This document shows positions 1,870 through 17,416 of a DNA stretch of 64,000 nt, in pieces. The DNA is from Thermoanaerobaculia bacterium. GTDB taxonomy: Bacteria; Acidobacteriota; Thermoanaerobaculia; UBA5066; Gp7-AA6. The position numbers and the translations under genes are program-made. The stretch spans positions 3,539-67,538 of the forward strand of contig DATKAE010000084.1 in assembly GCA_035498405.1 (NCBI GenBank), given 5' to 3'. The notes beneath the pieces were generated by a model. That model worked only from the letters and a program-made list of their open reading frames with translations. It searched no databases and was not told where the DNA came from. Position 1 is the first letter of the stretch. Each line of letters opens with the position of its first letter.

Positions 1870-2535
1870 TCAAATTTGCCGGGTCAACCGCCTTTCATCT
1901 AAACAGTCGTTCTCCCGTTCTCGCTTCCGTCGCTTGTGGAAAGGCCGGGAGGCGGAGACCCGGCCCCTCGGCTGCCCCTGCTCCGTCAGTGCGAACGGCC
2001 ACCAAAGGACAAAAGGGGCCGCGAAGCGTCCGACAAGCTGGTGGAAGTGAAATCCGGTCGCCCAGAAATTTCGCGCGAACGGGCCGTAGTTCGCTGCGCT
2101 CCAAGGGCCGAGCCTCGTTGCGTAGAGTGTCCGGACTTGAAAGAAAAGGGCGACGACATGGACCAAGCAGAGGACACCCGCGACAAGGAAAAAGGCTCCC
2201 ACTCGGTCTCCTCGCCAAGGCTTCGCATGCAAGGCGAAGAGGGCGGCGAGGATCACGAAGTTGAAGTGGAGATCGCCGGCGGGGATTCCCGGCCTGGGCG
2301 AGCTGGGAGGAAAGTCTTGGCGCTCGACAAGGATCTCACGGGAGTCGGCGAGAGGCCGGAGCCAAGTCACGGCGGGGTTCTCTGTCGCGCGCAGTACGAA
2401 CTCGGCCGCCGCTGCGAGCAGCCGCTCGTACGGCGCGGCGAAGCCCTTCCAGACCAGCAGGCCGAGAAGGAAACCGAGAAGAAGCCTCCCGGTGACCGCG
2501 AGGCCGCTCTTGGGAAGCGCGAACGTCGTCATCAT
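1870..2535 (-). CDS. Polytopic membrane protein, putative exosortase-associated partner
   Basis: 221-aa ORF with several hydrophobic segments. It lies 9 nt downstream of the exosortase gene on the same strand and has no enzyme motif. The name is by context only. Confidence 0.55.
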   Translation of the reverse strand: MMTTFALPKSGLAVTGRLLLGFLLGLLVWKGFAAPYERLLAAAAEFVLRATENPAVTWLRPLADSREILVERQDFPPSSPRPGIPAGDLHFNFVILAALFALHAKPWRGDRVGAFFLVAGVLCLVHVVALFFQVRTLYATRLGPWSAANYGPFARNFWATGFHFHQLVGRFAAPFVLWWPFALTEQGQPRGRVSASRPFHKRRKRERENDCLDERRLTRQI

Positions 2536-2544
2536 GTCCGAGGC

Positions 2545-3081
2545 TCACCGAGCTCCGGAGGGAGAAGCACCTGGCGAGAGAGCTGTTTCCATCTGCCTGG
2601 CCCAGAGAAGGAACAAGACCACCCCGAAGATGACCATCACGGACTGCCAAAGGACCGTGTGCAATGGGGAAAAGAGAGCAGGACGGTGCCTTCCCACCCA
2701 GAAGAGTGAAGCGACCCGCACGAAATTCAGAAGTTCAATCGCTAGAAATCCCGCGAAGAGCCCGACGGCGCGTCGCTGCCAGTTCGCGGGAAACGCGAGG
2801 ACCGCGGAGCCGAAGAGGAGCACGGTCTCCAGGCCATTGCAGCCGTTCTGGATGTTGACGGCGAACTCGGTCGACCGGATCTCGGTACCGTCCACGGTCA
2901 CAGCCTCTCCGAGGGCCTTCAAGAGAATCGCCGAGACTGCGGCGATCCATCCCGTAAATGGCACGATGACCACGTCGTTGACCGGCCGTAAGGCTACCGC
3001 GAAGAAGAAGAAGAAAAGAATGCCGATGAAGCGGGCCAGAAACACGAGCGAGCGGCGGCGGGCCAAGGGAGCCCCTCGCAT
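2545..3081 (-). CDS. xrtH: Small exosortase family protein (XrtH-like, IPTL-CTERM-type)
   Basis: About 178 aa when trimmed to the internal ATG at 3081 (alternative 3108); the listed 241-aa ORF runs into the upstream gene. Carries the exosortase/archaeosortase signature residues: NGCNGLE (Cys), LLNFVRV (Asn..Arg) and PLHTVLW (His). An IPTL-CTERM substrate is in the same cluster. Confidence 0.75.
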   Translation of the reverse strand: MRGAPLARRRSLVFLARFIGILFFFFFAVALRPVNDVVIVPFTGWIAAVSAILLKALGEAVTVDGTEIRSTEFAVNIQNGCNGLETVLLFGSAVLAFPANWQRRAVGLFAGFLAIELLNFVRVASLFWVGRHRPALFSPLHTVLWQSVMVIFGVVLFLLWARQMETALSPGASPSGAR

Positions 3082-3209
3082 CCGCTCTTTAACTTCGACC
3101 GAATGCATCGCGCTGGCGGTGGATCGGCCTAGGTTCTTCGAGGACTTCGCCACTGTCGGGTTCGCGAGAAGCTTCACGGTACAGAGGACTGATCTTCGGT
3201 CTGCTTCGG

Positions 3210-4736
3210 CTACTGAAAGTAGCCGTTGACGTCGATGATCAGGTGGACCGTTCCGGAGGTCTGGTCGCACCAGACGTCGAGGCCTCCCGAGGGGCCGAGC
3301 GTGGCGATCGCGTTGTTCGCCCGGGTCTCTCCCAGCCGGTAGTTGATGGTCGAGACCAGGGGCAGCGCCGCGCCTCCCGGGAAGAGGCGGAGGTCCCCGG
3401 CAGCCGTGGGCTGTGTAATCGTCACGTTGAGCGAGACGGACCGCGCGTCGGCCGGGATGCCGCAGGTCCCGGCGAGCGGGAAGATCCGGTCTGCCCCGGC
3501 CGCGAGTGCCGGCCCGCCGAGCGGCGCGGCGGCGTTTCGCGTGTCGAGCACCCGGCAGGGAGTAAGCGTGTAGAAGTCGAGGTTGGCCTTCGAAGGGAGA
3601 GCGACCTTGAAGACGGTGCCGAATCCGGATCCTCCGCCGCTGGATGTCGTCCCGTAGAGGTATCCGTCGCTCCCGAGCAGGAGCGGAGCCCTCGGGCTCG
3701 ATCCGTCGGTGCCATGGAAGTAGTGGAAGACGACGAAGTTGCCTGCCGGCGTGATCTGGAAGAGGGTGCCATTGCCATCCACACCGCAGGCGCTGGTCGT
3801 TCCGTACAGGTTCCCGCCTACCTGGATGAGGCCCGCGTTCGGGACGCAGCCATCGGCGTCGACGAAGGAGCGAAGAGTCGCAAAAGAGGTGCCGTCGCGG
3901 GCCATTCGAAAGAGAGTGCCGGCGCCCGCCCCTCCCGATCGCGTGGTTCCGTAAAGGTTTCCGTCGCTCGCCGCGAGGAGCTTTCCGAAAGGTGCGGCTC
4001 CCTCGCCGGGTGAGGCGCCGAAGGAGTGGAGGACCGTCAGGCTTCCGCTGGAAGTCATCCCGTAGATCGTTCCCTGGCCATACGTTCCATAGGCTTCGAT
4101 CGTCCCGTAGAACAATCCATCCGTCCCCTCGATCGGGGGGGCGTTGGGATACCTGCCGGTGCTGCCGTCGAGCGTGTAGAGCGTCGACAGCCCGCCTCCC
4201 GAGGTGACTCGGAAAACCGTGCCGTACACGTACACGGGCCCAATTCCGTGATTGGTCGTCCCGTAGAAATAGCCGTCACTTGCCAGAACGATCCCGTTTG
4301 GCTGGCCGCCCTCGCTGCCGTAGAAGTGGAAGAGCGTCGCAAAGGCTCCCGTCGGCGTGACCCTGAAGAACGATCCATAGTCCAGGAAGCCGTACCCGAC
4401 CGTTCCATAGAAGGCGCCGTCGCTTCCGTCGACGAGGGCGGCGCGCGGAGTCGCGCCGTCGTTTCCGTTGAAGGAGTGAATGGTCATCAGCGTGCCCCCC
4501 GGCGTGATCTGGAAGATCGTCCCCACGCCGTTGCTTCCGCCCCCCGAGGTCGTCCCGTAGAAGTTGCCGTCAGAGCCCTCGACGAGCCCCGCCTCGGGCG
4601 TCGACCCGTCGTCGCCCGTTCCGGAGAAGCTGTGGAGGACCGTCAGGACCTGTCCGCCAGCGGGACCAATCCCGGCACAGAGGCCGAGAAGCAGGAAGGC
4701 CGACGCGAGGGCGCCGCGCCTATTCGAAGTAGCCAT
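3210..4736 (-). CDS. Secreted GloVer (Gloeo_Verruco) tandem-repeat protein with C-terminal 122-aa 'TPCRVLDTR' module
   Basis: Signal peptide MATSNRRGALASAFLLLGLCAG. Repeats of the form LvegsDGnfYGTT.sGG..g.GTiFqiTp.G.lt.lhsF. The last 122 aa are homologous to the C-terminus of the 1717-aa protein. Confidence 0.8.
   Translation of the reverse strand: MATSNRRGALASAFLLLGLCAGIGPAGGQVLTVLHSFSGTGDDGSTPEAGLVEGSDGNFYGTTSGGGSNGVGTIFQITPGGTLMTIHSFNGNDGATPRAALVDGSDGAFYGTVGYGFLDYGSFFRVTPTGAFATLFHFYGSEGGQPNGIVLASDGYFYGTTNHGIGPVYVYGTVFRVTSGGGLSTLYTLDGSTGRYPNAPPIEGTDGLFYGTIEAYGTYGQGTIYGMTSSGSLTVLHSFGASPGEGAAPFGKLLAASDGNLYGTTRSGGAGAGTLFRMARDGTSFATLRSFVDADGCVPNAGLIQVGGNLYGTTSACGVDGNGTLFQITPAGNFVVFHYFHGTDGSSPRAPLLLGSDGYLYGTTSSGGGSGFGTVFKVALPSKANLDFYTLTPCRVLDTRNAAAPLGGPALAAGADRIFPLAGTCGIPADARSVSLNVTITQPTAAGDLRLFPGGAALPLVSTINYRLGETRANNAIATLGPSGGLDVWCDQTSGTVHLIIDVNGYFQ
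3336..3479. repeat. Near-identical 144-nt patch, copy A (partner 4846-4989)
   Basis: 4 mismatches in 144 nt against 4846-4989, including a 66-nt identical run (CCGGTAGTTGATGGTCGAGACCAGGGGCAGCGCC...). Flanking parts of the same domain are clearly more diverged. Confidence 0.85.
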
Positions 4737-7700
4737 TCACGTCCACGATAAGGTGCACGGTTCCCGAGGTCTGATCGCAGCGCACCGAGAGGTCCCCGGA
4801 GTCCCCGAGCGTCGCAATGGCATTGTTGGCGCGAGTCTGACCGGCCCGGTAGTTGATGGTCGAGACCAGGGGCAGCGCCGCGCCTCCCGGGAAGAGGCGG
4901 AGGTCCCCGGCCGCCGTGGGCTGGGTAATCGTCACGTTGAGGGAGACGGACCGCGCGTCGGCCGGGATGCCGCAGGTCCCGACGAGCGGAAACGTTCGGA
5001 CCGCTCCTGCGACGAGGGCCGGACCGCCGAGAGGCCCGTCGGCGTTGCGTGTATCGAGTATGCGACATGGGGTCAGCGTGAAAAATCCGGGAACGGGAGA
5101 CCCGGTGCCTTCGACGGTTGCGCAGGCAGACGAAGAGTCGTTGTCGGAGTTCGGATCGATCTGATCTCCCGAGACGGAGACCGTGTCGCAGGCGCTGCCC
5201 GCCCGCGTCGTCAGCAGCACGACCGTGACGTTCGCCGTCGCGCCGCTCGAGAGATCTCCGAGCGCGCAGGTGATGACGCCGGCCGATAGCTCGCAGGTTC
5301 CGCGGTCAGAGTCGGCCGAGACGAACGCGAGCCCCGAGGGTACGGGATCGGTCAGCGTGACGCCGGTGGCCGTCGCCGGGCCGACGTTCTTTACCTGGAT
5401 CGAGTGTGTCCACGATCCGCCGAGCATCACGGGGTCGGGCGAAGCGGTCGACGTGACCGAGAGATCCGTCGTCTGGCTCGTCTGGGGGATCACCTCCTCG
5501 GTGACCGTCAGCACCTGCGGGCTGCCGGCCGATCCGGTGCTCGTGATCGTGATGTGCGCCGTGTAGGTCCCCGGGCCCGTCAGGGCGCTCGGATCGACGC
5601 CGACGAGGAGTTCGGAGGGCGCGATTCCGGAAGCGGGGCTGAGGGTCACCCAGGACGCGTCGGCCGAGGCGCTCCAGGTGACCGTGCCGGTGCCGGAGTT
5701 GCGAACCCCGAGCTGCTCGGGAGCCGGCGCGGGACCTCCGTTGTCGCTGAAGAAGCGGATGGGTGCGGGACCGGCGACGAGCGTCGGCCCGGGCCTCGCC
5801 ACGCTCGCGGCGATGGTGACCGACACCGTCGACGTGCCCGTCTGGCCGTTGGAGTCGGTGGCGGTGAGGGTCAGCGTGTGCGTTCCGAGCGACAATGCGG
5901 CCGTATGAATCAGATGACCCGTGCCCAATGCGCCGTCGAGGCTCGAGCTCCAGCTGAGCTGCGCATCTCCCAGGGTGCCGTCCTCGTAGTCCTCCCCCAG
6001 ACCTTCGAGTGTGACGACCTGCCCGGCCTGGTAGACGGCGCCGTTGGCCGGGCTCAGAATCTGTGCCTGTGGAGGCTTGCCCGCCACGGTAAATGGGCCG
6101 TTGTCGGCAAAACCGGTGAGCACGCCGTCGCTCCCCACGACACGCAGGTAGCCCGACGCCGCGCCGCCCGTGCCTTCGAGTTCCGAGGCTTCCAGCGGAA
6201 GGCTCGTCCCCGCGATTCCGGTCGCGATGGCTCGCCAGGTGGACTTGCTGGTCGGGCTGTACAGCACGGTGTAGGTGAGGGCGTCGCCATCGACGTCGGA
6301 GCCGCTCCAGCTGAGGGTGACCGGTCCGCTCGCCGGCAGGCTCGGGCCGCCGCTGCGGGAGAGGATCGAGACCGTCGGGGGGTTCGCGCTGACCTGCCTC
6401 GAGGCGATCTCGTGGCCGGTGGCGTCGGAGAAGATCGTGATCCGTTTCGTTCCGGCGGCGAAGTCAACGATCTGCTGGATGATGCCCGTGTCTCCGTCGT
6501 CGGTCGAGACGAGCGGGGTGAAGGGATGGTCGGCCAGAATTCCACCCGCTCCGTCGAGGAGCCGAATGCGATACGGCCCCGCGACGAGGGGGGGCACGGT
6601 CGCGACCTCGGACTGCCGCGAGAGAACGACGAACGACGCGGCGTCGGAGGCGAAATCGATCGTGCCGTAGACCGAGAGGAAGTCCCCGGTCGTCTGGGTC
6701 CGCGCGGCGGCCATGGTCGTGGATCCTGCGACCACGGCCGGGAAAGTCGCGTTGATGTATCCGCTCAGTCCCTTGTAAGTGAAGTCGGAGGCCCACTCGT
6801 AGGCGCAATAGGTCATGATGTCGGTCCAGTTCGGGCTCACGGGTTGCGGTGCGATGTTGAAGCGGGCATCTCCCGCGTCGAACCCCGCAAACTGCAGGGG
6901 ACTCGTGGCGGGGCCTCCGATCAGGCCGTTCGGGTACGGGTAGGCGGGCGCGACCTCACCGGCTGCCCAGACGGCGCCGCAGAACGTGGAATGGTGCCGG
7001 CCGAGCGCGTGTCCGATTTCATGGCAACCGTACCAGTCGCCATAGGCGGCATCGGTATCCCACCTGAAATTCGGGAATGTCTGCGGGTTCCCTGTCGGTC
7101 CCGATGCCTGGAACGACGGGATGCCCGCGGACGAACCTCGCATGAACCCGCCGCTGTCGTCCACCATGCCGTAGTAGACGACACCCGGGTCTCCGGCGTT
7201 CCAATTGTTCCGGATCCAGAGCAGGACCCCGTTCACGACGTTCGAGGTCGGAACGGCCGCAGAAACGTAGTCGACGAAGGTTCGCCGGACCACGTTCAAT
7301 TTGCTGATCGGGTACATGCGGCGCAGTTCCGACTCGAGGAGGCTCTGGTCGAGGGCGGCCGCCGAGACGAGGACTCCTCCGGGAAAGCCGCCGTTGTAGT
7401 ACTGGTAGTTCACGATGCGCAGCGACGGCGTCTTGGCTGCCGCGAACGTTACGTCGACGGAATCGCTGTTGTTACCCGGATCATCCTCGGCGACGGTGTG
7501 CGCCGGATCGATCTGAGCTCGGAGCGTGATCGTTCCGGCGTGGATCCACTCTTTGGGAAGCTCGAAGTAGAACGAATCGTCCAGGAGAGTCCGGTGGGGC
7601 ACCGTCGCAACGTTGATGACGGCGCCGCGGTTCAAGGGCTGGAGGGCGGCGCCGAGGCTCGCGCCGCCCTGCGAGCCCTCGAGTTTCGCGGTGATGCCGC

Positions 7701-9873
7701 TCGCCGGCTTTAGGCCGGCCACGTGGAAGCGCACGAACGTGCGCTTGTCGGCGATGAGGGGGACGCTGTTGGTCAGATCCTGCACGGATTGCGTCACCTC
7801 GATGCTGTGGGACGTGCAGGAGGACCGCAGAGGAAACAGCTCGATCGCGTTCGTCTGCGAGAACTCCGACGTCGAACCGGCGGCGTCGGTGGCCGTCGCG
7901 GTGACGTAAGGAGGGAAAGGCACCGCGCGGGGTGCGAGCGCGGAAAGAGCGGCGTCACCCGGGAGCTTGCCCGCGATCGAGATACAGAATGAGCCGGACG
8001 CGTCAGGCGTCGCGGACGTGAGATAGGTCTTGCCCTCGCCGTGCCCCGAAGGATCGCTCGTGTCGCTCGCGTAGAAATCGATCTGCACCGTCGTCGGGTT
8101 GGCCGTATCGACGTGTCCTCGGAGGATCGTCGTGTTCGAGGCGCCGTCGTAGACCGCGGAGACCCCGACGGGGAAATTCATCAGGCTGTTCGGCCCGGTG
8201 TCGGTGTCTCCCGGATCGTTGGCCGTCACGCCGTCGGCGCCCAGGTCGATGCCGAGCCCGCCATTGTCGTGGATGCTGTCCCCGCGGATGGAGTTTCCTG
8301 TCGCTGCCGCGCCCGTAACGGTCACGCCGTTGCCCGTGTTGAAGGCGATGACGTTAGCCTCGCCGGCAGCGGTCCCGCCGATAAAGTTGCCGGTGGTGGC
8401 GTTGATGAGAACGCCGTCGCCACCATTGTGCCGGTTGGCTCCGGCTGCATTCGACCCGATCCAGTTTCCGAGCACCTTGTTGCCCGTTGCGCCGGCATTG
8501 CGGATCTCGACGCCGTACAGGGTGTTTCCGGAAATGACGTTTCCCGCGCCCGCGACCGTCCCGCCGATCGTGTTGTTCGGGGCGCTGTCGACGACGATTC
8601 CCTTGCTGTTGGGGAGGGCGGCACCGCTCGCGTTGACGCCGATGAGGTTGCCCTGGACCAGGTTGTCGTGCGCGTCCGCGGTCCCGAGAAAGATTCCGGG
8701 AAGCGTGTTGCCCGCGATGACGTTCGATTCCGCCGCGCTCGATCCGCCGACGAAGTTGCCGGGCGCCTGGACGAAGACGCCGTTACCCGCGTTGGGGAGA
8801 GCGGCGGTCCCCGTGCTGTCGGTCCCGATGTAGTTGCCGAGAACCTTGTTTCCCGTCGTACTCGTCCCGACGATGCTGACTCCGGAGGCGCCGACAGAGC
8901 CCGAGACGATGTTGCGGGCGCCGGAAGCCGCACCGCCGATCATGTTGCTCGAGGCGCCGCCGACGATCACCACGCCCTCCTGCGCATTGCCAAGCGGGGC
9001 GGTTCCGAAGACGTCGGTGCCGATGAAGTTGCCCTGCACGATGTTGCCGGTGGCCCCGCTGCCCGTGATCCCGATCCCGGGGAGTGCGTTTCCCGAGATC
9101 AAGTTCCGCACGCTGAAGTCGGTTCCGCCGATGACGTTGTTGGCGGAGTCGATATAGATGCCGTTGCCGGTGTTCGGGATCTTCGCCGTCCCGGACGCAT
9201 CCGTCCCGATGCGGTTGTTCTGCACGGTGTTCCCGGAGGCGCCCGCGCCGGTGATCTCGATTCCCGCGCCGCCGTTTCCCGAGGCGACGTTTCGACCCGC
9301 CGGAGTGTTGCCGCCGATGAAGTTGTCGGCGGAGCCCACGTAAATCCCATCGCCGGAATTCGGGAGGGACGCCGTTCCGGTGGCGTTGGTGCCGAGGAAA
9401 TTCCCCTGGATCACGTTGCCGCCGCCGGTGAGCAAGACGATCCCGTGACCGAATCGATTGATCGCAAGACCCTTCACGGTGCTGGACCCGGCCAGAATTG
9501 TCAGGCCGTTGCCTGGCGCCACAGCGGAGCCGTTGAGCTCGATCAGCGGCGTGGCGGCATAACCGGTCTGCGTCGTGCCGTCGATGATCACCGGGTCGGT
9601 GATGTCGGGAAGCGCGGTTGCCGGTGTGATCGTGTGCACGCCGGTGCCCGGGATGCCGAACGCGATCATGTCGGTTCCCGCGTTGGCGTTGGCCTCCTGG
9701 ATCGCGGCCCGCAGCGTGCAGTTGCCGTCGGTGTCCGCGCAGATACCGTCGCCGATGGTCTTGTCCGGCTTGTCATTGGTGGAGTTCACGGTGAACGTCG
9801 CAGCCGTGGCGACGGCGCCGGTCAACAGCAGGACGAGACCGAGGCACGACTGCCGGTGAGCGATCCCGCTCAC
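4720..9873 (-). CDS. 1717-aa secreted multidomain protein: CSLREA-like motif + parallel beta-helix repeats + metzincin-like protease + Ig-like domains + DUF11-like repeat + C-terminal 122-aa module
   Basis: GTG start at 9873, 5 nt after GGAGG, overlapping the upstream stop as GTGA. Signal peptide SCLGLVLLLTGAVATAATF. Contains GNCTLRAAIQEANA, about 10 repeats of GN.IGG....N.ISGN...GI.I.G..A.GN.VQGN.IGT, WYGCHEIGHALGRHH (nt 7009-7023 = HEIGH) followed by DIMTYC, and a DUF11-like stretch (LTDPVPSGLAFVSA). The listed 2084-aa ORF is a read-through into the upstream gene. Confidence 0.8.
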   Translation of the reverse strand: MSGIAHRQSCLGLVLLLTGAVATAATFTVNSTNDKPDKTIGDGICADTDGNCTLRAAIQEANANAGTDMIAFGIPGTGVHTITPATALPDITDPVIIDGTTQTGYAATPLIELNGSAVAPGNGLTILAGSSTVKGLAINRFGHGIVLLTGGGNVIQGNFLGTNATGTASLPNSGDGIYVGSADNFIGGNTPAGRNVASGNGGAGIEITGAGASGNTVQNNRIGTDASGTAKIPNTGNGIYIDSANNVIGGTDFSVRNLISGNALPGIGITGSGATGNIVQGNFIGTDVFGTAPLGNAQEGVVIVGGASSNMIGGAASGARNIVSGSVGASGVSIVGTSTTGNKVLGNYIGTDSTGTAALPNAGNGVFVQAPGNFVGGSSAAESNVIAGNTLPGIFLGTADAHDNLVQGNLIGVNASGAALPNSKGIVVDSAPNNTIGGTVAGAGNVISGNTLYGVEIRNAGATGNKVLGNWIGSNAAGANRHNGGDGVLINATTGNFIGGTAAGEANVIAFNTGNGVTVTGAAATGNSIRGDSIHDNGGLGIDLGADGVTANDPGDTDTGPNSLMNFPVGVSAVYDGASNTTILRGHVDTANPTTVQIDFYASDTSDPSGHGEGKTYLTSATPDASGSFCISIAGKLPGDAALSALAPRAVPFPPYVTATATDAAGSTSEFSQTNAIELFPLRSSCTSHSIEVTQSVQDLTNSVPLIADKRTFVRFHVAGLKPASGITAKLEGSQGGASLGAALQPLNRGAVINVATVPHRTLLDDSFYFELPKEWIHAGTITLRAQIDPAHTVAEDDPGNNSDSVDVTFAAAKTPSLRIVNYQYYNGGFPGGVLVSAAALDQSLLESELRRMYPISKLNVVRRTFVDYVSAAVPTSNVVNGVLLWIRNNWNAGDPGVVYYGMVDDSGGFMRGSSAGIPSFQASGPTGNPQTFPNFRWDTDAAYGDWYGCHEIGHALGRHHSTFCGAVWAAGEVAPAYPYPNGLIGGPATSPLQFAGFDAGDARFNIAPQPVSPNWTDIMTYCAYEWASDFTYKGLSGYINATFPAVVAGSTTMAAARTQTTGDFLSVYGTIDFASDAASFVVLSRQSEVATVPPLVAGPYRIRLLDGAGGILADHPFTPLVSTDDGDTGIIQQIVDFAAGTKRITIFSDATGHEIASRQVSANPPTVSILSRSGGPSLPASGPVTLSWSGSDVDGDALTYTVLYSPTSKSTWRAIATGIAGTSLPLEASELEGTGGAASGYLRVVGSDGVLTGFADNGPFTVAGKPPQAQILSPANGAVYQAGQVVTLEGLGEDYEDGTLGDAQLSWSSSLDGALGTGHLIHTAALSLGTHTLTLTATDSNGQTGTSTVSVTIAASVARPGPTLVAGPAPIRFFSDNGGPAPAPEQLGVRNSGTGTVTWSASADASWVTLSPASGIAPSELLVGVDPSALTGPGTYTAHITITSTGSAGSPQVLTVTEEVIPQTSQTTDLSVTSTASPDPVMLGGSWTHSIQVKNVGPATATGVTLTDPVPSGLAFVSADSDRGTCELSAGVITCALGDLSSGATANVTVVLLTTRAGSACDTVSVSGDQIDPNSDNDSSSACATVEGTGSPVPGFFTLTPCRILDTRNADGPLGGPALVAGAVRTFPLVGTCGIPADARSVSLNVTITQPTAAGDLRLFPGGAALPLVSTINYRAGQTRANNAIATLGDSGDLSVRCDQTSGTVHLIVDVNGYFE
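4846..4989. repeat. Near-identical 144-nt patch, copy B (partner 3336-3479)
   Basis: See copy A. The two are offset by exactly 1510 nt and occupy the same position within the homologous C-terminal modules. Confidence 0.85.
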
Positions 9874-11027
9874 GAGGGCCTCCGCAACAGGAACAGCCCC
9901 GCCGCCACGAGCGAGAGCGCGAGCACCGCGAGGAACGACGGGGACAGCGTCGGGATGGCGGCCGCCGGGGCAGGACCGACCGGCGGTGCAGCCGTCGGGG
10001 AGGGAGCCGGGCCGAAAGTGGGAGTGACGGTTGCGGTCGGCGTCGCCGTGGGCGCCGCCGCGAGGCTGTAGCGCCCGATCGCACTCGTGTTCTCCTCGGT
10101 GAACCAGATGTTCCCGTCCGGTCCCGTCGCGATGCCCCAGGGTCCGGCGTTGATGGTCGGGACCAGAAACTCGGTGATGACTCCGGCCGTCGTGACCCTC
10201 GCGATCCTGCCCGCGCCGAGGTAATCCTCCGTGAACCACAGGTTCCCGTCCGGGCCGACCGCGATATCGCGCGGCCCGCTGTTGCTCGAAGGGATCGGGA
10301 ACTCGGTGATCACGCCCGCCGTCGTAATCCGCCCGATCTGATTGCCGCCGTATCCCTCCGTGAACCAGAGGTTGCCGTCCGGGCCCGCCGTGATGCCGTA
10401 GGGGCCGCTTGCGGGCGTCGGGATCGGGAACTCCGTGATGACGCCAGCCGTGGTGATCCGGCCGATCTTGTTGGCGAAATCGCGGCCCTCGGTAAACCAG
10501 AGGTTTCCGTCCGGCCCCGACGCGATGAGGTAAGGCAGGCTGCTGGTTGTGGGTATCGGAAACTCGGTGATAACGCCGGCTGTAGTGATCCGCCCGATCT
10601 TGTTGGCTTGTTCTGTGAACCAGAGATTCCCGTCGGAACCGGCGGCGATGCCGAAGGGCCCGCTGGTCGGCGTCGGGATTGCAAACTCCGTGAGAACGCC
10701 GGCTGGCGTGATCCGGTCGATCCGGTTCGTGCTGGAGACCGTAAACCAGAGGTTGCCGTCCGGACCCGGCGCGATGTAGACAGGGCCGCTCGCAAACATG
10801 ACCCCAGGGATTAGGAACTCGGTGATGACGCCGGCCGTCGTGATCCGGCCGACCCGGTTCCCAATGACGTTCGATTCCGTGAACCAAAGGTTTCCGTCGG
10901 CACCCACCGTGATGCTCAGCGGGCCGCCGGCCGTCGGAGTCGAGAACTCCGTGAACATCTGCGCGGTCATGCACCCGCTGGAGAGGATTCCGGCGAGAAG
11001 CCAGGCCCGCGTTGGCCTGCCGCGCAT
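9870..11027 (-). CDS. Vgb-lyase-like beta-propeller repeat protein with IPTL-CTERM sorting signal
   Basis: ATG at 11027 after GGAGG. N-terminus is lipoprotein/signal-like (AWLLAGILSSGCM). Seven repeats of GPDGNLWFTE...IGRITTAGVITEFPIP. C-terminus is a P/A linker followed by IPTLSPSFLAVLALSLVAAGLFLLRRPS (IPTL motif + TM + basic tail). Confidence 0.8.
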   Translation of the reverse strand: MRGRPTRAWLLAGILSSGCMTAQMFTEFSTPTAGGPLSITVGADGNLWFTESNVIGNRVGRITTAGVITEFLIPGVMFASGPVYIAPGPDGNLWFTVSSTNRIDRITPAGVLTEFAIPTPTSGPFGIAAGSDGNLWFTEQANKIGRITTAGVITEFPIPTTSSLPYLIASGPDGNLWFTEGRDFANKIGRITTAGVITEFPIPTPASGPYGITAGPDGNLWFTEGYGGNQIGRITTAGVITEFPIPSSNSGPRDIAVGPDGNLWFTEDYLGAGRIARVTTAGVITEFLVPTINAGPWGIATGPDGNIWFTEENTSAIGRYSLAAAPTATPTATVTPTFGPAPSPTAAPPVGPAPAAAIPTLSPSFLAVLALSLVAAGLFLLRRPS

Positions 11028-11143
11028 GGGTACCTCCCCGGGCCTACTGCCGGACGATCCGGCGCGAGGCCCGCTGTCGCTCTGACAGTCGGCGCGGCGT
11101 TTTGTTTCGCGGCGAAGCCCGGCGGGCGTCGAGCCGGCAGGGT

Positions 11144-11797
11144 CTACGGGGAGGGCGCCTCGAAGCGGTAGACCGTTCCCCGGTAGAGGACGACCACGCG
11201 GGATCCCAGCGAGGCCCACGGCCCGAGATCCGGAATGCGCGAGAGGACCTCCCGTCGCTCTTCGGGTGTCGCGACGCGGACGACCGGTAGGTCGGCGGAA
11301 GGATCGAACTCGCGATCCACCCATTCCCCCGCGATCAGATCGAAGCTCTTGCCGGCGACCACCCGACGGCCGGATCGGTGCAATTCGGGCGGCCGCGAGG
11401 AGTGCCGCGGAGCCGCTGAAACCGCCGGAGCGGGAGCGGCGCCCACCTCCGAGGGTGCAGGCGCGGCGGTGGGTGCGGCCGGCGCAGGGGCGGCGGGCGA
11501 GCGGCCCTCGGAAGGCTTTTCGGAGGTGATCCGAACGCCGAGCCACGCCGCCACGAGAAGCGCAGCCGCTGCGGCGAGCAGGCCAGCGACGGGAGAAAAA
11601 ACGAACCGGGCGTGGCGGGCGCGCGCGGTGAGCGAGACGACCGAACGGCACTCCCGGCAATCCGCGAGGTGCCGGATCATTCGGGATCGGCCCTCCGCGT
11701 TCAGGTTCTCGTCCAGGAAGGCCGCGAGCGCGCTCGTGTCCGGGTCTCCCGGACGGTGGCTCAAGGTGTCTTGTTGCACGTCACTCCTCTTAGACAC
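11144..11797 (-). CDS. Anti-sigma factor (zf-HC2 type), single-pass membrane protein
   Basis: GTG start overlapping the sigma-factor stop by 8 nt (GTGTCTAA). HLADCRECR zinc-finger motif, TM segment FSPVAGLLAAAAALLVAAWLGV, P/A linker and a periplasmic domain of about 100 aa. Confidence 0.75.
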   Translation of the reverse strand: MSKRSDVQQDTLSHRPGDPDTSALAAFLDENLNAEGRSRMIRHLADCRECRSVVSLTARARHARFVFSPVAGLLAAAAALLVAAWLGVRITSEKPSEGRSPAAPAPAAPTAAPAPSEVGAAPAPAVSAAPRHSSRPPELHRSGRRVVAGKSFDLIAGEWVDREFDPSADLPVVRVATPEERREVLSRIPDLGPWASLGSRVVVLYRGTVYRFEAPSP

Positions 11798-12584
11798 GTC
11801 CCCGGCCGCGCTTTTTCGTGTCTGGAGGCGCCGCCAGCAGCGCGCTCAGGTCGAAATCCACCCGTCCGAAATCGACCGGGCCGCCGGTCGTGCTCGCGTC
11901 CGCGCCGGTCTCCTCCTTCTCCCGCGTCGCGATCTCCTGACGCAGCCGCGAGCGAACCTCGGCGAGCCTGCGGCTCAGGGTCGCCTTGGAGACTCCGAGC
12001 ATCGGCGAGATCTGTTCGAGAGTCAGCGACTGCTCGTAGTAGAGCAAGAGCAGCAGTCGGGCATCCGCGTCCAGAGCCTGCAGCGCGGCTGCCGTTGCCC
12101 GCGCGAGCGCGCTGAGATCCCGATCTTCGCCGTCGGGCGCGCGCGAGGGCTCTCCCGCGTCCTCGAGCGGCCGATCCCGTCGCATCGCGGCGAGGGCGTT
12201 GCTGGCGGCGTGGGCGACCAGGGTTCCCAGCCACGTGCGCAGCGAGCTGCGTCCCCCGAACTGGCGGATCTTGGCGCGCTGCCACAGGTCGGCGATGACG
12301 CGCTCCGCCACGTCGCTCGCGGGGGGATCGCGGCGAGTGCAGCGCATCGCGAAGTCCCGGATGAACGGGAAGTGTCGGCGCGACAGCTCCTCCCACGCGG
12401 CTTCCTCGCCGGCCGCGCAGGCGGCCGCGAGATAGAGATCGTCCAAGGCCAGTCGGTCGGGACGCGTCCCGCTGGCCACCGCCTCCCGGACGCGGCTTTC
12501 GAGCCCGGCCGGATCGACGTCGAAACGCCGCCGAACGCGGCGCTCGATCTCGGCGCCGAGGTTCCAACTTCGTTCGTCGCTCAA
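11790..12584 (-). CDS. ECF-type RNA polymerase sigma-70 family factor with N-terminal extension
   Basis: TTG start at 12584 overlapping the stop of the upstream CHAT gene (TTGA). Region-2-like segment (AWEELSRRHFPFIRDFA...ADLWQ) and region-4 HTH (LLLLYYEQSLTLEQISPMLGVSKATLSRRLAEVRSRL). The listed 770-aa ORF is read-through. Confidence 0.8.
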   Translation of the reverse strand: MSDERSWNLGAEIERRVRRRFDVDPAGLESRVREAVASGTRPDRLALDDLYLAAACAAGEEAAWEELSRRHFPFIRDFAMRCTRRDPPASDVAERVIADLWQRAKIRQFGGRSSLRTWLGTLVAHAASNALAAMRRDRPLEDAGEPSRAPDGEDRDLSALARATAAALQALDADARLLLLLYYEQSLTLEQISPMLGVSKATLSRRLAEVRSRLRQEIATREKEETGADASTTGGPVDFGRVDFDLSALLAAPPDTKKRGRGRV

Positions 12585-15358
12585 GGCTCGCCGACCAGCT
12601 CGAATCCGGCCCACAGGGCGGGGTCCCGGAATCGCCGCTGCGCCTCGAGCTGCGCGGCCCGCAACGCCTCCGCCTTGCCGTGCCCGGCCTGCAGATTCGC
12701 GTAGAAGCGGTCCATCAGGAAGGTCGTCGCGCGGTCGTCGACGTCCCACTGGCTGACGACGACGGAGGGCGTGCCGGCGTAGAGGAAGGCGCGGGTCAGA
12801 CCGAGAATGCCTTCGCCGGTCACCTCGCCCAGGCCGGTCGAGCAACCGCTCAGGACGACGAGGTCTGCGTGCAGGACGAGGCCGAAGATCTCGTCGGCGC
12901 GCAGATAGCCGTCCTCGCCCTCGCCTTCCGCGAGGAGCAACGCGGAGTCGAGCGGCCGCCGGTCGGAGACTAGGCCGTGCGTCGCGAAGTGGAGGACCTC
13001 GCGGCCTCCGGAGCGGCTCTTGACCGCGGCCTCGGTGGCCGCGGCGCCGGTCAGCACGTCGCGCCGGGATTCGGGAAAGTGCGCCGCGACGAGCGCGCCC
13101 TCCCGGCGGGCTCCGGCCAGCCTCTCGAGCCCGGATCCCCGGGGCGGGACCGGATCCGCCACGACGAGAGCGCTCGTCAGACCCGGGGAATGCCGCCCCT
13201 TGTTTGCCGTGTAGCGCAGCACGGACACGGCCGGAACGACGACGAGCGTATGCCTCTCGAGAAGGGTGCGACCGCTGCGGTCGAGGAGAGCCGCGAACGG
13301 AAGCAGAGAGAGAATGCCCTGCGGCGCCACGATCAGGAGCTCCTCGGGGCGCGCGGGGAGCCAGCGCGCGACCGGTTCGATGAGCAGGCGATCGAGCTCG
13401 CGCAGGCGCCGGGCGGCGTCGCGCCGCGCGGCCGGGCTCGAGCGGTTCATGTCGGCGAGGACGGCTTGCACGAGCGAAGCGAGGCGGCCCCGTCCCGCCT
13501 CGAGCGATTCCTCGTGCAGCTCTCCTTCGGGAGAGAGCGACCAGAGAAAGAGCCGATCCTCGGTCAGGAGGTATTCGACGAGCGTGCCCCTCCGCGCGGA
13601 GACGGCCTGCCGGATGTCCTCGCCCGTCGGGGTCTCTACCGTCAGGAGGCTTGCAAGCTCGGGGTCGCGTTTCCGGAGCCGCGAGAGCGCCGCGTCGACG
13701 CGGTCGGGAGCGCCACGAGCTCCGGCAGCGACGGCTGCGTCCCCTGTCGGTAGAGGCGTCGCGCGAGTCTCTTCGAGGGCCTGCCGCACGTCTTCGAGGG
13801 CCTCGCGGGCGTCCGGATGCGGTGCCCCGCCTCTCTGCCCGAGGAGGTCGGCGAGGGCGCGGGCGCGGCAGGCCTCCGCGACCTCCAGAGCCTCCTGCGG
13901 GAGCCCCGCTCGGGTGAGCGCCTCGACGAGGTCCTCGAAGGCGCGGCGCCTCTGCTCGAGGAATCCGATCTTCCCCGGGTCGGTCCGGACCTCGGCCCTC
14001 AGGTCGTCGATGAGGCGGACGCTCGCGCGAAGGGCCTCGACCGCTTCGGGATCTCGGCCGAGCGCCCGAAGCGCGCGGGCGCGGTCCGCCTGGACCTGCC
14101 ACTCGATGTCGGGCATGGTGTTCGTGCGCGCCAGCGAGAGTGCGGCGTCCATTCGCGCGAGGGCCTCGGAGGGCCGCCCGGCGCGCAGGTCCAGCACGCC
14201 GAGCGAATCCAGGTCCGAGGCCTCAGGATCCGGTTCCCCGATCTCCCGGGCGATGGCGAGGCTCTCTTCCAGATTGGCGCGCGCCGCTTCCAGATCGCCG
14301 AGCTGGATGCACACGTCGCCGAGCTGCGACAGCGTGCGGGCCGTCTCCGCGCGGCGGCCGAGCTTCTTCCACACCGCAAGCGCCTCGTCGTATCGCTCGA
14401 GGCCCTCGCGTTCGTGGCCCAGATGGGTGAGGCAGACCCCGATGTTCCAGGCGGCAAAGCCGATCTGAGCCTTGTAGCCGATCTTCTTCGCGATGACGAG
14501 GGACTCCTGAAAACGCGGCTTCGCCTCCTCGAACTGTCCCAGATCCATGAGGACCACGCCGATCCCGTTGAGCGTCTGCGCTTCGCCTTGCCGGTCTCCT
14601 CCTTCCCGCCGCAGAGGCAGAGCCTCCGCGTACAGATCGAGCGCCTTCGCGAATCGACCGCGGGCCCGGGCCACGAGACCGAGCGCGTTGAGAGTCTGGC
14701 CGATGGCCGCCGGATTGCCTTGCCCGCGCCGGATCGCCAGGGACCGCTCCATCCATTCCTCGGCGTCTCCGTAGTGGGCGAGGAAGCGATAGACGAGACC
14801 GATGTTCATGGTCGCGACGCCTTCGAGGCGGGCGGAAGGGGCATAGGCGTCGACCTCGAGGGCCCGACGATAGGCGTCGAGGGCCTCGGGGTAGCGGGCA
14901 AGGCTGTAGTTCGAGAGGCCGATGTCGTTCCAGTTGAGGGCCTCCTCGGCGGTCTGGCCCAGACGCTGGCGGATGACGAGCGCCTCGCGCAGCGGCTCGA
15001 GCGCCGCCGCGGAGTCTCCCGAGAGCCAGCGCGCTACTCCCAGCCCTTCGAGGGCGTCACCCGTGCTCCGTTCGTCGCAGAGGGCTTCGGACAGGTCGAG
15101 AGCCGCCTGAAACCGTTCGACGGCTTCCGGGCCGTTGCCGGTCCGGTTGGCCTCCTCGCCGGCCGCGAGCTGCTTTCGAAGCTCCGCTTCCTTCGCCTCC
15201 GAGGCCGACGGCGGCGCCGACTCGACCCGAGTGCCGGCGGAAGGGGCCCCGACGGCGCGGGCGGGACGGTCCGGCGCGGCCGGGTCCGCCGACAGGGATG
15301 GCGTCGCCAGAGCGAGCAGGCACAGCAGGGTCGGGACAGCCAGGAACTGGACCATCAC
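12581..15358 (-). CDS. Exported TPR-repeat CHAT-domain (caspase-fold) protease
   Basis: 925 aa. Signal peptide MMVQFLAVPTLLCLLALATPSLSA|DP. About 10 TPR-like repeats. C-terminal CHAT domain with the dyad HFATHG (His codon 12977-12979) and VLSGCSTG (Cys codon 12842-12844). Confidence 0.85.
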   Translation of the reverse strand: MMVQFLAVPTLLCLLALATPSLSADPAAPDRPARAVGAPSAGTRVESAPPSASEAKEAELRKQLAAGEEANRTGNGPEAVERFQAALDLSEALCDERSTGDALEGLGVARWLSGDSAAALEPLREALVIRQRLGQTAEEALNWNDIGLSNYSLARYPEALDAYRRALEVDAYAPSARLEGVATMNIGLVYRFLAHYGDAEEWMERSLAIRRGQGNPAAIGQTLNALGLVARARGRFAKALDLYAEALPLRREGGDRQGEAQTLNGIGVVLMDLGQFEEAKPRFQESLVIAKKIGYKAQIGFAAWNIGVCLTHLGHEREGLERYDEALAVWKKLGRRAETARTLSQLGDVCIQLGDLEAARANLEESLAIAREIGEPDPEASDLDSLGVLDLRAGRPSEALARMDAALSLARTNTMPDIEWQVQADRARALRALGRDPEAVEALRASVRLIDDLRAEVRTDPGKIGFLEQRRRAFEDLVEALTRAGLPQEALEVAEACRARALADLLGQRGGAPHPDAREALEDVRQALEETRATPLPTGDAAVAAGARGAPDRVDAALSRLRKRDPELASLLTVETPTGEDIRQAVSARRGTLVEYLLTEDRLFLWSLSPEGELHEESLEAGRGRLASLVQAVLADMNRSSPAARRDAARRLRELDRLLIEPVARWLPARPEELLIVAPQGILSLLPFAALLDRSGRTLLERHTLVVVPAVSVLRYTANKGRHSPGLTSALVVADPVPPRGSGLERLAGARREGALVAAHFPESRRDVLTGAAATEAAVKSRSGGREVLHFATHGLVSDRRPLDSALLLAEGEGEDGYLRADEIFGLVLHADLVVLSGCSTGLGEVTGEGILGLTRAFLYAGTPSVVVSQWDVDDRATTFLMDRFYANLQAGHGKAEALRAAQLEAQRRFRDPALWAGFELVGEP

Positions 15359-15501: not shown

Positions 15502-16015
15502 TCCCTTCAACGAGTTCCGCTGCCACGCTCCGCTCATTTCTGCATCTACCTCGCTCGGACCGTAGCGGTCCCGTAGCCGTTCGTGGACTGCAAACGTCCG
15601 ACAACCGTCGTCTCGTTCGAACACTCACTCGCGGGTTCGCCCCAAGTCAATCAACCGGGGTATCGAGCGCCGACCGACAGCTACTGTTGGCCTCCACCGA
15701 TGCCCTCAAGGATGGAAGCGCGCAGGCGACTTCGAGAATCGCGAACGACGGCCGCGTCCTCCCAGAGCTCTCGATAAACGATGAATCGGTCACCAACCCT
15801 TTCGGTACAAATGGAACTGGCCAGCCAGACTGCCCTTCGACATCCGCGAAAGGCTTGCGGCCGCTGAAGGCGTCGAGCCAAGAGCCTTACCTCCTCGCCC
15901 CCCTCATCTTTCTCGGTGAGATAAGATTCGCGCAGCGGATCGAGGAGGAAATGGACATCCGGTGCGAGTGCCGGCTCCTGCCTCATTTCTCCCAGCCTTC
16001 CGCCAGGGAGGTCTC

Positions 16016-17416
16016 ATGTCTCGTCTGATTCGTATCTCTCCTCTGATTCTGGCTTCCCTCTTCTACGCCAATGGGGTTCTTGGCCAGGAGATCCCGGCGG
16101 CGCGGCAAATTGCGAACTGGCCGGCGCCGCTCTCTTGGACTCCTTCGGGTGAGACAATGTCTGCCCCCGAGGGGGTCGGGCCTGGGGGCGCACGTGGCCT
16201 GACGCCGCTCTCGACCACGGCAGTTCCCCTGACCTCGCCAGAGCCTTTTGTTGGGATCACGCCCTGCCGCATCGCCAACACCACCGGCAACGGCGGCTTC
16301 TCCGGCGCCTACGGCCCTCCCGCGCTGTCCCAGGGTGTACCCCGCGACTTCACCCTGACCGGCCAGTGCGGGATCCCGGCCTCGGCAGTCGCCGTCTCTC
16401 TCAACCTCACCGTGACCAACACCACCGGTGCCGGCTTCATCAAGATCTTCCCCGCCGGCGGATCGATACCCACCGTCTCGACGCTCAACTACGTGGCCGG
16501 CCAGGTCATCGCCAACGCCGCGGTCGTGCCGCTCGGGACCGGAGGCGCGATCACCGTGATCGCCGGCGTCTCCGGCACCGACTTCATCCTGGACGCCAAC
16601 GGGTATTACGGAAGCACAGCCGCGTCCAACACGAACGTGTTTCTCGGCCCCAGTGCCGGCAACTCGACGATGAGTGGCATCCGAAACACGGCCATCGGCC
16701 ACGAAACGATCCCCTTCAACACCACCGGAAATGACAACACCGCCATCGGCTCCCTCGCGCTCAATGCCAACACCACCGGCGTCCTCAACACGGCTGTAGG
16801 CCGCGTCGCGCTCATCAACAACACCAGCGGCAGTGGCAACACCGCGGTGGGGATTGGTGCGGGCGCCAATCTCACCACGGGAGGCAACAACATCGACATA
16901 GGCAACGCGGGGGTTGCGGCGGAGTCGAACACCATCCGGATCGGCACCAGCGGCACGCAGACGAAATTTGTCGTTGCGGGCGTGCGGGACGCAACCGTCC
17001 TGGGCGACGCGAATGCCGTCCTCATCGATTCCAATGGGACGCTTGGAACGACCCCCTTCTCCTCTGAGAAATGGAAGAGGGAGATTGCAGATATCGGCCA
17101 GGAGAGCTCCGCACTGCTGAAGCTCCGGCCGGTCTCCTTCTACTACACGAGCGACACGAGAGGTATCCGCCAGTACGGCCTGATCGCCGAGGAGGTGGCC
17201 GAAGTGATGCCGGCTCTGGTGCAGTGCTCTGCGAACGGAGAGCCCGAGGCGGTCCGTTACCAATTCCTCGTTCCGATGCTCGTCAACGAGGTCCAGAAGG
17301 ACCGAAAAACGATCCAAGAGCAGAGCCGCGAGATTCAGGAGATCAAGGCGGAACTTCAGCGTTTGGAGGCAGTGATCTCGGTTCGGGCGGATCGGGAAAC
17401 AACGCCCCGGCCATAA
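16016..17416 (+). CDS. Secreted tail-fibre-like protein: 122-aa 'TPCR' module + short Gly/Asn-rich fibre repeats + C-terminal peptidase-S74-type intramolecular chaperone domain
   Basis: ATG at 16016 after GGGAGG, with signal peptide MSRLIRISPLILASLFYANGVLG. Module at nt 16247-16612. Repeats NTAIG..../NTAVG.... C-terminus SSEKWKREIADIG...LRPVSFYY...YGLIAEEVAEVMPALV...VRYQFLVPMLVNEVQK plus a coiled coil, as in phage tail-spike and endosialidase chaperone domains. Confidence 0.7.
   Translation: MSRLIRISPLILASLFYANGVLGQEIPAARQIANWPAPLSWTPSGETMSAPEGVGPGGARGLTPLSTTAVPLTSPEPFVGITPCRIANTTGNGGFSGAYGPPALSQGVPRDFTLTGQCGIPASAVAVSLNLTVTNTTGAGFIKIFPAGGSIPTVSTLNYVAGQVIANAAVVPLGTGGAITVIAGVSGTDFILDANGYYGSTAASNTNVFLGPSAGNSTMSGIRNTAIGHETIPFNTTGNDNTAIGSLALNANTTGVLNTAVGRVALINNTSGSGNTAVGIGAGANLTTGGNNIDIGNAGVAAESNTIRIGTSGTQTKFVVAGVRDATVLGDANAVLIDSNGTLGTTPFSSEKWKREIADIGQESSALLKLRPVSFYYTSDTRGIRQYGLIAEEVAEVMPALVQCSANGEPEAVRYQFLVPMLVNEVQKDRKTIQEQSREIQEIKAELQRLEAVISVRADRETTPRP

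Follow-up and report, generated by a model that had tools for sequence, protein, structure and literature searches.

A beta-sandwich module found in one or three copies in secreted acidobacterial proteins may form a three-fold surface-attachment knob

What does a domain of about 120 residues do when it ends, or begins, otherwise unrelated secreted proteins? The question is raised by a 64,000-nucleotide stretch of DNA from Thermoanaerobaculia bacterium (GenBank assembly GCA_035498405.1, contig DATKAE010000084.1, positions 3,539 to 67,538), hereafter the window, in which a module with two cysteines occurs in a GloVer-repeat protein, in a 1717-residue repeat protein and in a fibre-like protein. 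The first-pass annotation, made from the sequence alone, placed the module in no named family and suggested that it mediates surface attachment or sorting. Our results point to a large family of extracellular beta-sandwich domains occurring in one or three copies per chain, which may act as a three-fold knob for non-covalent attachment. The three copies in the window are:

3213-3578, minus strand: module copy 1, the C-terminal 122 residues (387-508) of the 508-residue GloVer protein, followed by the stop codon at 3210-3212
4723-5088, minus strand: module copy 2, the C-terminal 122 residues of the 1717-residue CSLREA/BACON/DUF11 protein
16247-16612, plus strand: module copy 3, residues 96-217 of the open reading frame (ORF) 15962-17416, near the N-terminus of the fibre-like protein

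Translation and BLASTP confirmed these three copies where the first-pass annotation had put them, together with the two cysteines that all of them keep. That annotation left unsaid the strand of copies 1 and 2, which is the minus strand: its translation gives the quoted peptides, and translation of the plus strand at the same coordinates gives an unrelated peptide. Copies 1 and 2 share 87% of their residues (E 1e-64), and the similarity between them sets in precisely at the module boundary. The identity of copy 3 to the other two is 45-48% (E ~1e-28), with 45% and E 2e-28 for its comparison with copy 1; tblastn over the whole window found no fourth copy. The central 123 nucleotides of copies 1 and 2 (3335-3457 and 4845-4967) are identical at 117 of 123 positions, as compared with about 70-80% in the rest of the module, and this tract looks like the product of gene conversion between adjacent genes.

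The feature of the module that we consider the most informative, and that the first-pass annotation had missed, is that it comes in ones or threes, which points to a three-fold assembly. In a profile search of cluster representatives, the highest-scoring proteins contained three, six or nine matched stretches, and our own hidden Markov model of the module resolved six-copy proteins mostly as 3+3, with a spacer of about 90-100 residues, besides one protein with nine copies. A list of top scores favours multi-copy proteins, and the rule was therefore checked on samples unbiased by copy number. All 133 module ORFs from 78 loci in metagenome-assembled genomes (MAGs) of Thermoanaerobaculia, Vicinamibacteria and Holophagales had a single copy. 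For three-copy proteins, 79 metagenome loci were picked by their best match to a single Bryobacterales-type module, yielding 62 complete, stop-bounded ORFs, 58 of which contained exactly three tandem copies; of the four exceptions, two are neighbouring ORFs that lie on one contig but in different frames, which suggests a frameshift. Three copies each, with neither cysteine, were also found in the Streptomyces proteins WP_331736320 and WP_328623562 and in the Curtobacterium cutinase-family protein WP_146248389. The linkers joining tandem copies are short and nearly constant, 453 of 578 junctions being 7-8 residues long and 92% falling between 5 and 9.

AlphaFold2 modelled the three-copy protein P0195 with a pLDDT of 93.9 and a pTM of 0.91, and this pTM indicates that the three domains are predicted to pack as one rigid body; no single chain in the PDB resembles the whole model (TMq ≤0.20). 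The S74 chaperone is a marker of obligate trimeric fibres, and the presence of copy 3 in a protein with this chaperone fits a three-fold unit. S74 is likewise taken as a trimeric-fibre marker in published work (PMC10769870). Taken together, the copy numbers, the fixed linkers and the rigid model give indirect support to a functional unit of three modules, whether these come from separate chains or from a single one.

From an alignment of 123 sequences, AlphaFold2 predicted the module as a beta-sandwich of eight strands and no helix (pLDDT 97.7, pTM 0.89), in agreement with the all-beta look noticed in the first pass. The best Foldseek match in the PDB was the C-terminal tip of the Bdellovibrio bacteriovorus MAT fibre Bd2133 (8OND/8OK3; E 3e-4, TMq 0.58 and 0.49), which superposed with a root-mean-square deviation of 5-6 Å, 13-15% identity and a moderate TM-score. 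It was followed by the coat jelly-rolls of ilarviruses and alfalfa mosaic virus, Ena3A, the BclA C-terminal domain (TMq 0.42-0.46, E ~7e-3 to 1.2e-2), carbohydrate-binding modules (CBMs; weak matches, TMq ~0.34-0.46) and the BC2L-C N-terminal lectin, whereas among predicted viral structures the named top matches were phage tail-fibre proteins, with TMq up to 0.70. With PDB matches no better than moderate, the model reads as a jelly-roll-like sandwich to which no solved structure is closely related.

As published, the tip of Bd2133 is a trimer-forming beta-sandwich of 119 residues that takes the place of the S74 chaperone, and the fold was described by the authors as previously uncharacterised (PMC10769870). 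Like the module, it is a beta-sandwich of about 120 residues, terminal in a secreted protein, but at this identity and TM-score homology is not established. The Bd2133 domain is also the distal tip of its fibre, whereas the module in fibre proteins occupies the opposite, N-terminal end; the module is mostly found on non-fibre passengers, and Bd2133 has no reported three-copy form. The TNF/C1q-like jelly-rolls, represented among the fold matches by BclA and BC2L-C (ranks 15-20 and 49, TMq ~0.40-0.46), are compact three-fold units, often terminal, that hold ligands at or between protomers. The model of the module has eight strands, as compared with the ten of the classical TNF/C1q fold. The terminal trimeric beta-sandwich knob is a known kind of structure; in the resources that we searched, we found no description of this family, of its scale or of its one-or-three architecture.

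Residue conservation was counted over 1086 unique modules. Cys8 and Cys39 were both present in 1010 of them and both absent in 61, and only 15 had just one; the two cysteines are thus kept or lost together, which supports a Cys8-Cys39 disulfide as the usual state of the module. At position 103, copies 1 and 2 have a third cysteine, which is not conserved. Nearly invariant in single-copy, three-copy and actinobacterial modules alike are P7, R9, D12-T13-R14, P23, R31, P42, N51, T53, P73, S76, N79, G83, N88, D116, G119, Y120 and F121. To judge from this alignment, the many conserved polar residues suggest either a binding site or a network between protomers.

Neither the module nor its profile matched any Pfam-A or NCBIfam 20.0 model, even at E≤1, and the same was true over the module for sixteen three- to six-copy relatives and three actinobacterial homologues. 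Likewise, the profile of 123 module sequences and the three-copy and actinobacterial relatives found no match among PDB sequences. At this threshold there was no NCBIfam or Pfam match to the C-terminal domain (CTD) of the type IX secretion system (T9SS; TIGR04183 / type A and B), and the C1q/TNF Pfam models and Pfam CBM families did not match the module either. The literature searched on choice-of-anchor, GloVer, IPTL-CTERM, exosortase H (XrtH) and Acidobacteria sorting domains contained no description of the module. The view that it has no named family was therefore upheld, and the module is supported as a genuine, unnamed, extracellular domain. Two candidate names were discarded: PF26607, precomputed for protein P0297, was absent from a repeat Pfam scan, and TIGR03437, the 'Solibacter C-terminal domain', matches in P0054 a region upstream of the module.

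The family is very large. An exhaustive profile search of 1.84 billion cluster representatives, clustered at 50% identity, returned 37,034 matches at E≤1e-3 and 13,366 at E≤1e-30. A word-indexed search gave 980 close relatives, nearly all of them short fragments ending in VNGYFQ or VNGYFE, whose named sources were Thermoanaerobaculia and Acidobacteriota MAGs. GTDB species genomes contain at least 550 loci, and the best 78 of these are all from Acidobacteriota (Thermoanaerobaculia, Vicinamibacteria and Holophagales) except for one MAG labelled Acidithiobacillales; single MAGs account for up to six loci. Module genes number several per genome and are often clustered. Among plasmids, tblastn found 18 Streptomyces records and one Curtobacterium record. 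The mention in the first-pass annotation of similar 'R.LDTR' repeats in actinobacteria was correct in that these are real homologues, but not in describing them as cell-wall hydrolases, since the three examined were one cutinase-family protein and two PKD-containing proteins. A phage origin of the module found no support: 50,697 phage genomes gave no match, 2.9 million viral contigs gave a single one, and the fibre gene of the window has no phage neighbours. The single viral-contig match (L161, IMGVR_UViG_3300014494_000029, 7209-8345) combines a peptidase-like N-terminal region with one Cys-less actinobacterial-type module at the C-terminus, and may represent either a lysin-like protein of a phage or a bacterial contig wrongly classed as viral.

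Most modules occupy the extreme C-terminus, as do 115 of the 133 single copies and 51 of the 58 triples. Their ending, D-x-N-G-Y-F, is strongly conserved and reads DVNGYFQ in copies 1 and 2. The passengers N-terminal to it include GloVer, choice-of-anchor Z and HAF proteins, DUF11 repeats, TIG, BACON, PKD, FG-GAP, Flg_new_2 and SBBP domains, and NHL/YVTN and Vgb_lyase-like propellers, with a few hydrolases (GH18, GH16, GDSL lipase and cutinase). The expectation that the module fills the C-terminal slot of the choice-of-anchor class was therefore met, mostly at the very end of GloVer, choice-of-anchor Z, HAF, DUF11 and Vgb_lyase-like proteins. Because the Vgb_lyase-like family (PF24684) carries either C-terminus, the module in relatives P0015, P0041, P0052 and P0069 and an IPTL-like tail in the window and in L166, there is direct evidence that the module and the IPTL-like tail can replace each other within one family of passengers.

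About 10% of proteins, that of copy 3 included, have the module at the N-terminus or inside the chain. Most of those from single-copy lineages are secreted fibre-like proteins with the module after the signal peptide (L013, L016, L023, L060, L077 and copy 3). The five homologues share an 'NWTVPAY' motif, the module, Gly-rich repeats and a C-terminal domain of the form FVEPHPTD...RYVSLEGPE.GTYFRGRG; the L016 member had no match in NCBIfam. In L044 and L057 the module lies between the signal peptide and a long region that may be DUF1800-like. All 21 Bdellovibrio MAT fibres have, after the signal peptide, a beta-rich domain of about 130 residues that is proposed to bind the predator's own surface. 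This domain occupies the same place in secreted S74-type fibres as the module.

The proteins that carry the module in the window are encoded by:

3210-4736, minus strand: gene for the secreted 508-residue GloVer-repeat protein, with seven GloVer repeats and the same gene call on identical contigs
4720-9873, minus strand: gene for the secreted 1717-residue protein, with a CSLREA N-terminal domain, long repeats, PKD/BACON/DUF11 and then the module
16016-17416, plus strand: gene for the secreted fibre-like protein, with a signal peptide, the module, tail-fibre-like repeats and a Peptidase_S74 chaperone

All three have signal-peptide-like N-termini. The seven repeats of the GloVer protein exceed the curated threshold of TIGR03803 (320.8 bits, cut-off 44). 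The 1717-residue protein matches Pfam DUF11 (6e-25) and BACON_2 and NCBIfam TIGR04214 (CSLREA), and its length is that of the gene call on identical contigs. A mechanical ORF at 4720-10974 on the minus strand extends about 367 codons upstream of the real start of this gene; this upstream part is the neighbouring Vgb_lyase-like gene read out of frame, an artefact of high GC content that makes ORFs throughout the window appear too long. In the fibre-like protein, about 55 residues separate the signal peptide from copy 3, Peptidase_S74 matches residues 367-420 (4e-10), and PHROG tail fibre and spike matches are confined to residues 149-473. The protein resembles the S74 fibres of the Bdellovibrio MAT group. 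It had been assigned to a 'neighbouring element'; instead, it is a stand-alone secreted fibre outside any prophage, and the genes around it gave no phage matches.

We propose that the module is a three-fold knob that attaches surface proteins non-covalently to a ligand or a cell, a proposal to which we give about an even chance. It would be an extracellular, jelly-roll-like beta-sandwich of about 120 residues, usually with one disulfide, working as a three-fold unit. In one-copy lineages, including the three proteins of the window, the knob would be built from three chains, and in lineages with three tandem copies it would form within one chain as a pseudo-trimer. The assembled knob would then bind a surface ligand non-covalently, and in this way keep secreted repeat proteins, fibres and some hydrolases attached to the cell that makes them or to the surface of a target. 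The module would take the slot of IPTL-CTERM, PEP-CTERM and other anchors without itself being processed by a sortase or exosortase. Non-covalent attachment is the most likely role in view of the terminal position, the choice-of-anchor-type passengers, the exchange with IPTL-CTERM and the presumed cell-proximal place in fibres. Beyond what was observed, we infer trimer formation by single copies, ligand binding and anchoring, the last as in the first-pass annotation, and we modestly favour anchoring to the producer's own surface over binding to external surfaces.

Several points weigh against this proposal. The three-fold symmetry of the three-copy model is read from its pTM alone, trimerisation of the single-copy modules is deduced rather than observed, and the fold matches are only moderate (TM 0.45-0.6, 13-16% identity). 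A signal-peptide heuristic was positive in 106 of 180 homologues, although this is a crude test and many gene starts are uncertain. Moreover, the module occurs in diderm Acidobacteria and in monoderm Actinobacteria, which disfavours a single shared envelope ligand, and some passengers are hydrolases, fitting substrate binding as well as self-anchoring.

Another reading takes the knob as a carbohydrate-binding or lectin module aimed at external substrates or at prey or host surfaces rather than at the producer's envelope, which we consider rather unlikely. It would account for the several CBMs and the TNF-like BC2L-C N-terminal domain in the fold search, for the phage tail-fibre proteins as best viral matches, for passengers such as GH18, GH16, GDSL lipase and cutinase, and for a family shared by diderm and monoderm soil bacteria; but the passengers are mostly non-catalytic repeat families of the choice-of-anchor type, the CBM matches are weak (TMq ~0.4), and in fibres the module lies opposite the S74-capped tip, at the presumed cell-proximal end. 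The near-invariance of R9, D12, T13, R14, N51, N79, N88 and D116 across phyla, which exceeds the need of a scaffold, makes it improbable that the module is a folding or trimerisation nucleus only, of the BclA/C1q C-terminal domain or foldon kind and without a ligand of its own, despite its likeness to the terminal trimer domains of BclA and Bd2133 and its occurrence in S74-type trimeric fibres. In addition, the passenger is not oligomerised by the single-chain three-copy form, which dominates among Streptomyces proteins and those of the Bryobacterales type, and since this form needs no such oligomerisation, the conserved function should reside in the assembled knob and not in trimerisation itself. 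A small enzyme or self-processing domain could be suspected from the conserved polar cluster and the conserved Asn-Gly near the C-terminus; however, no enzyme active-site structure appears among the top fold matches, and the small size and the architectures are those of an accessory module, so that we regard this idea as very improbable.

A further explanation is a C-terminal secretion or sorting domain for a dedicated machine, like the T9SS CTD or linked to XrtH. The almost constant location at the extreme C-terminus with its conserved D-x-N-G-Y-F end, the several copies per genome on diverse passengers, and the position of the two module genes of the window between an IPTL-CTERM-like substrate gene and XrtH all speak for it. 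Indeed, IPTL-CTERM/XrtH, PEP-CTERM, T9SS CTD and LPXTG anchors share the position and the passenger families of the module, and choice-of-anchor anchors, like the module, are found on multiple genes per genome, with the module here beside an IPTL-CTERM-like protein and XrtH. However, unlike these anchors, the module is a folded 120-residue domain with no transmembrane helix, signal motif or match to a sorting model, and it can be N-terminal or triplicated, so that any anchoring would be non-covalent. The motif, transmembrane helix and basic cluster that define IPTL-CTERM and PEP-CTERM are missing from the module, which ends without a hydrophobic helix, and the obligate C-terminal, single-copy state of the T9SS CTD contrasts with the common N-terminal, internal and three-copy cases, the last of which are hard to explain as a signal. 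Given also the homologues in Streptomyces and Curtobacterium, the roughly 10% of modules, copy 3 among them, that are not C-terminal, and the seven other XrtH loci sampled, none with a module gene closer than 10 kb, the sorting role offered in the first-pass annotation did not hold up, and we deem this explanation unlikely.

Extending the three-fold knob to a new, phylum-spanning, non-covalent cell-surface anchor, disulfide-stapled and made by three chains or by one three-copy chain, is a more tentative step, which we consider possible but less than probable. If true, a large share of the surface proteins of soil Acidobacteria, and many proteins secreted by Actinobacteria, would be displayed by this anchor, a role comparable to that of SLH, LysM or the T9SS CTD, to which it would be unrelated. 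As a means of non-covalent attachment it would be new, it would offer a ready-made tag for display, and it would explain why choice-of-anchor passengers in these phyla often have no recognised sorting signal. The Acidobacteria rank among the most abundant bacteria in soil, and little is understood of the way in which their surface proteins are displayed. Protein clusters with the module number in the tens of thousands, and a name for it would provide an annotation for much sequence now labelled 'hypothetical'; its one-or-three rule offers a clear structural hypothesis that is cheap to test.

Copies 1 and 2 belong to a string of genes on the minus strand (1870-15358), whose order was established from gene calls on identical contigs and our own profile scans: a CHAT-TPR protein, an ECF-type sigma factor, an uncharacterised 211-residue protein, a propeller, the 1717-residue protein, the GloVer protein, XrtH and a probable XrtH-associated protein. 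The last five genes, from the propeller onwards, are tightly spaced, and the string may be a regulated surface-protein operon. Besides the two module genes, these five are:

9870-11027, minus strand: gene for a Vgb_lyase-like beta-propeller of 385 residues (PF24684 at 4e-116), without the module
2545-3066, minus strand: gene for XrtH, 144 nucleotides downstream of the GloVer gene
1870-2535, minus strand: gene for a probable XrtH-associated membrane protein (NF041730 at 21.6 bits, below the cut-off of 35)

XrtH scored 119.2 bits with TIGR04177 (cut-off 86) and matches Pfam Exosortase_EpsH, and its homologues carry the name exosortase H at JGI and NCBI. The propeller ends in AAAIPTLSPSFLAVLALSLVAAGLFLLRRPS, an IPTL-CTERM-like tail with IPTLS, a hydrophobic helix and RRPS, and the only one of its kind in the window; it aligned with all 27 positions of TIGR04174 (IPTL-CTERM) at 13.3 bits, below the cut-off of 20.5. 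The propeller is the presumed XrtH substrate. The 1717-residue gene overlaps the propeller gene by 4 nucleotides and the GloVer gene overlaps the 1717-residue gene by 17, and these overlaps and the gene order place the two module proteins between a presumed XrtH substrate and XrtH.

The co-occurrence with exosortases that the first-pass annotation wished to see checked is not general: XrtH adjoins the module genes here, yet none of the seven other XrtH loci, sampled with 10-kb flanks, has a module gene. Exosortase substrates are normally scattered across the genome, and because of this we consider uninformative the reciprocal result that tblastn found XrtH near module genes in none of 78 loci. 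In the seven other loci, XrtH is followed in every case by a gene in the position of the XrtH-associated protein, and in two it is directly preceded by an IPTL-like protein. Five of them (L168-L172, Thermoanaerobaculia contigs, ~7000-11200) share the order of two ketoacyl-synthases, a 4HBT thioesterase, XrtH and the XrtH-associated protein. This lipid-related ketoacyl-synthase/thioesterase/XrtH order is absent from the window and conserved throughout L168-L172, with the ketoacyl-synthase genes fused with the thioesterase in L170.

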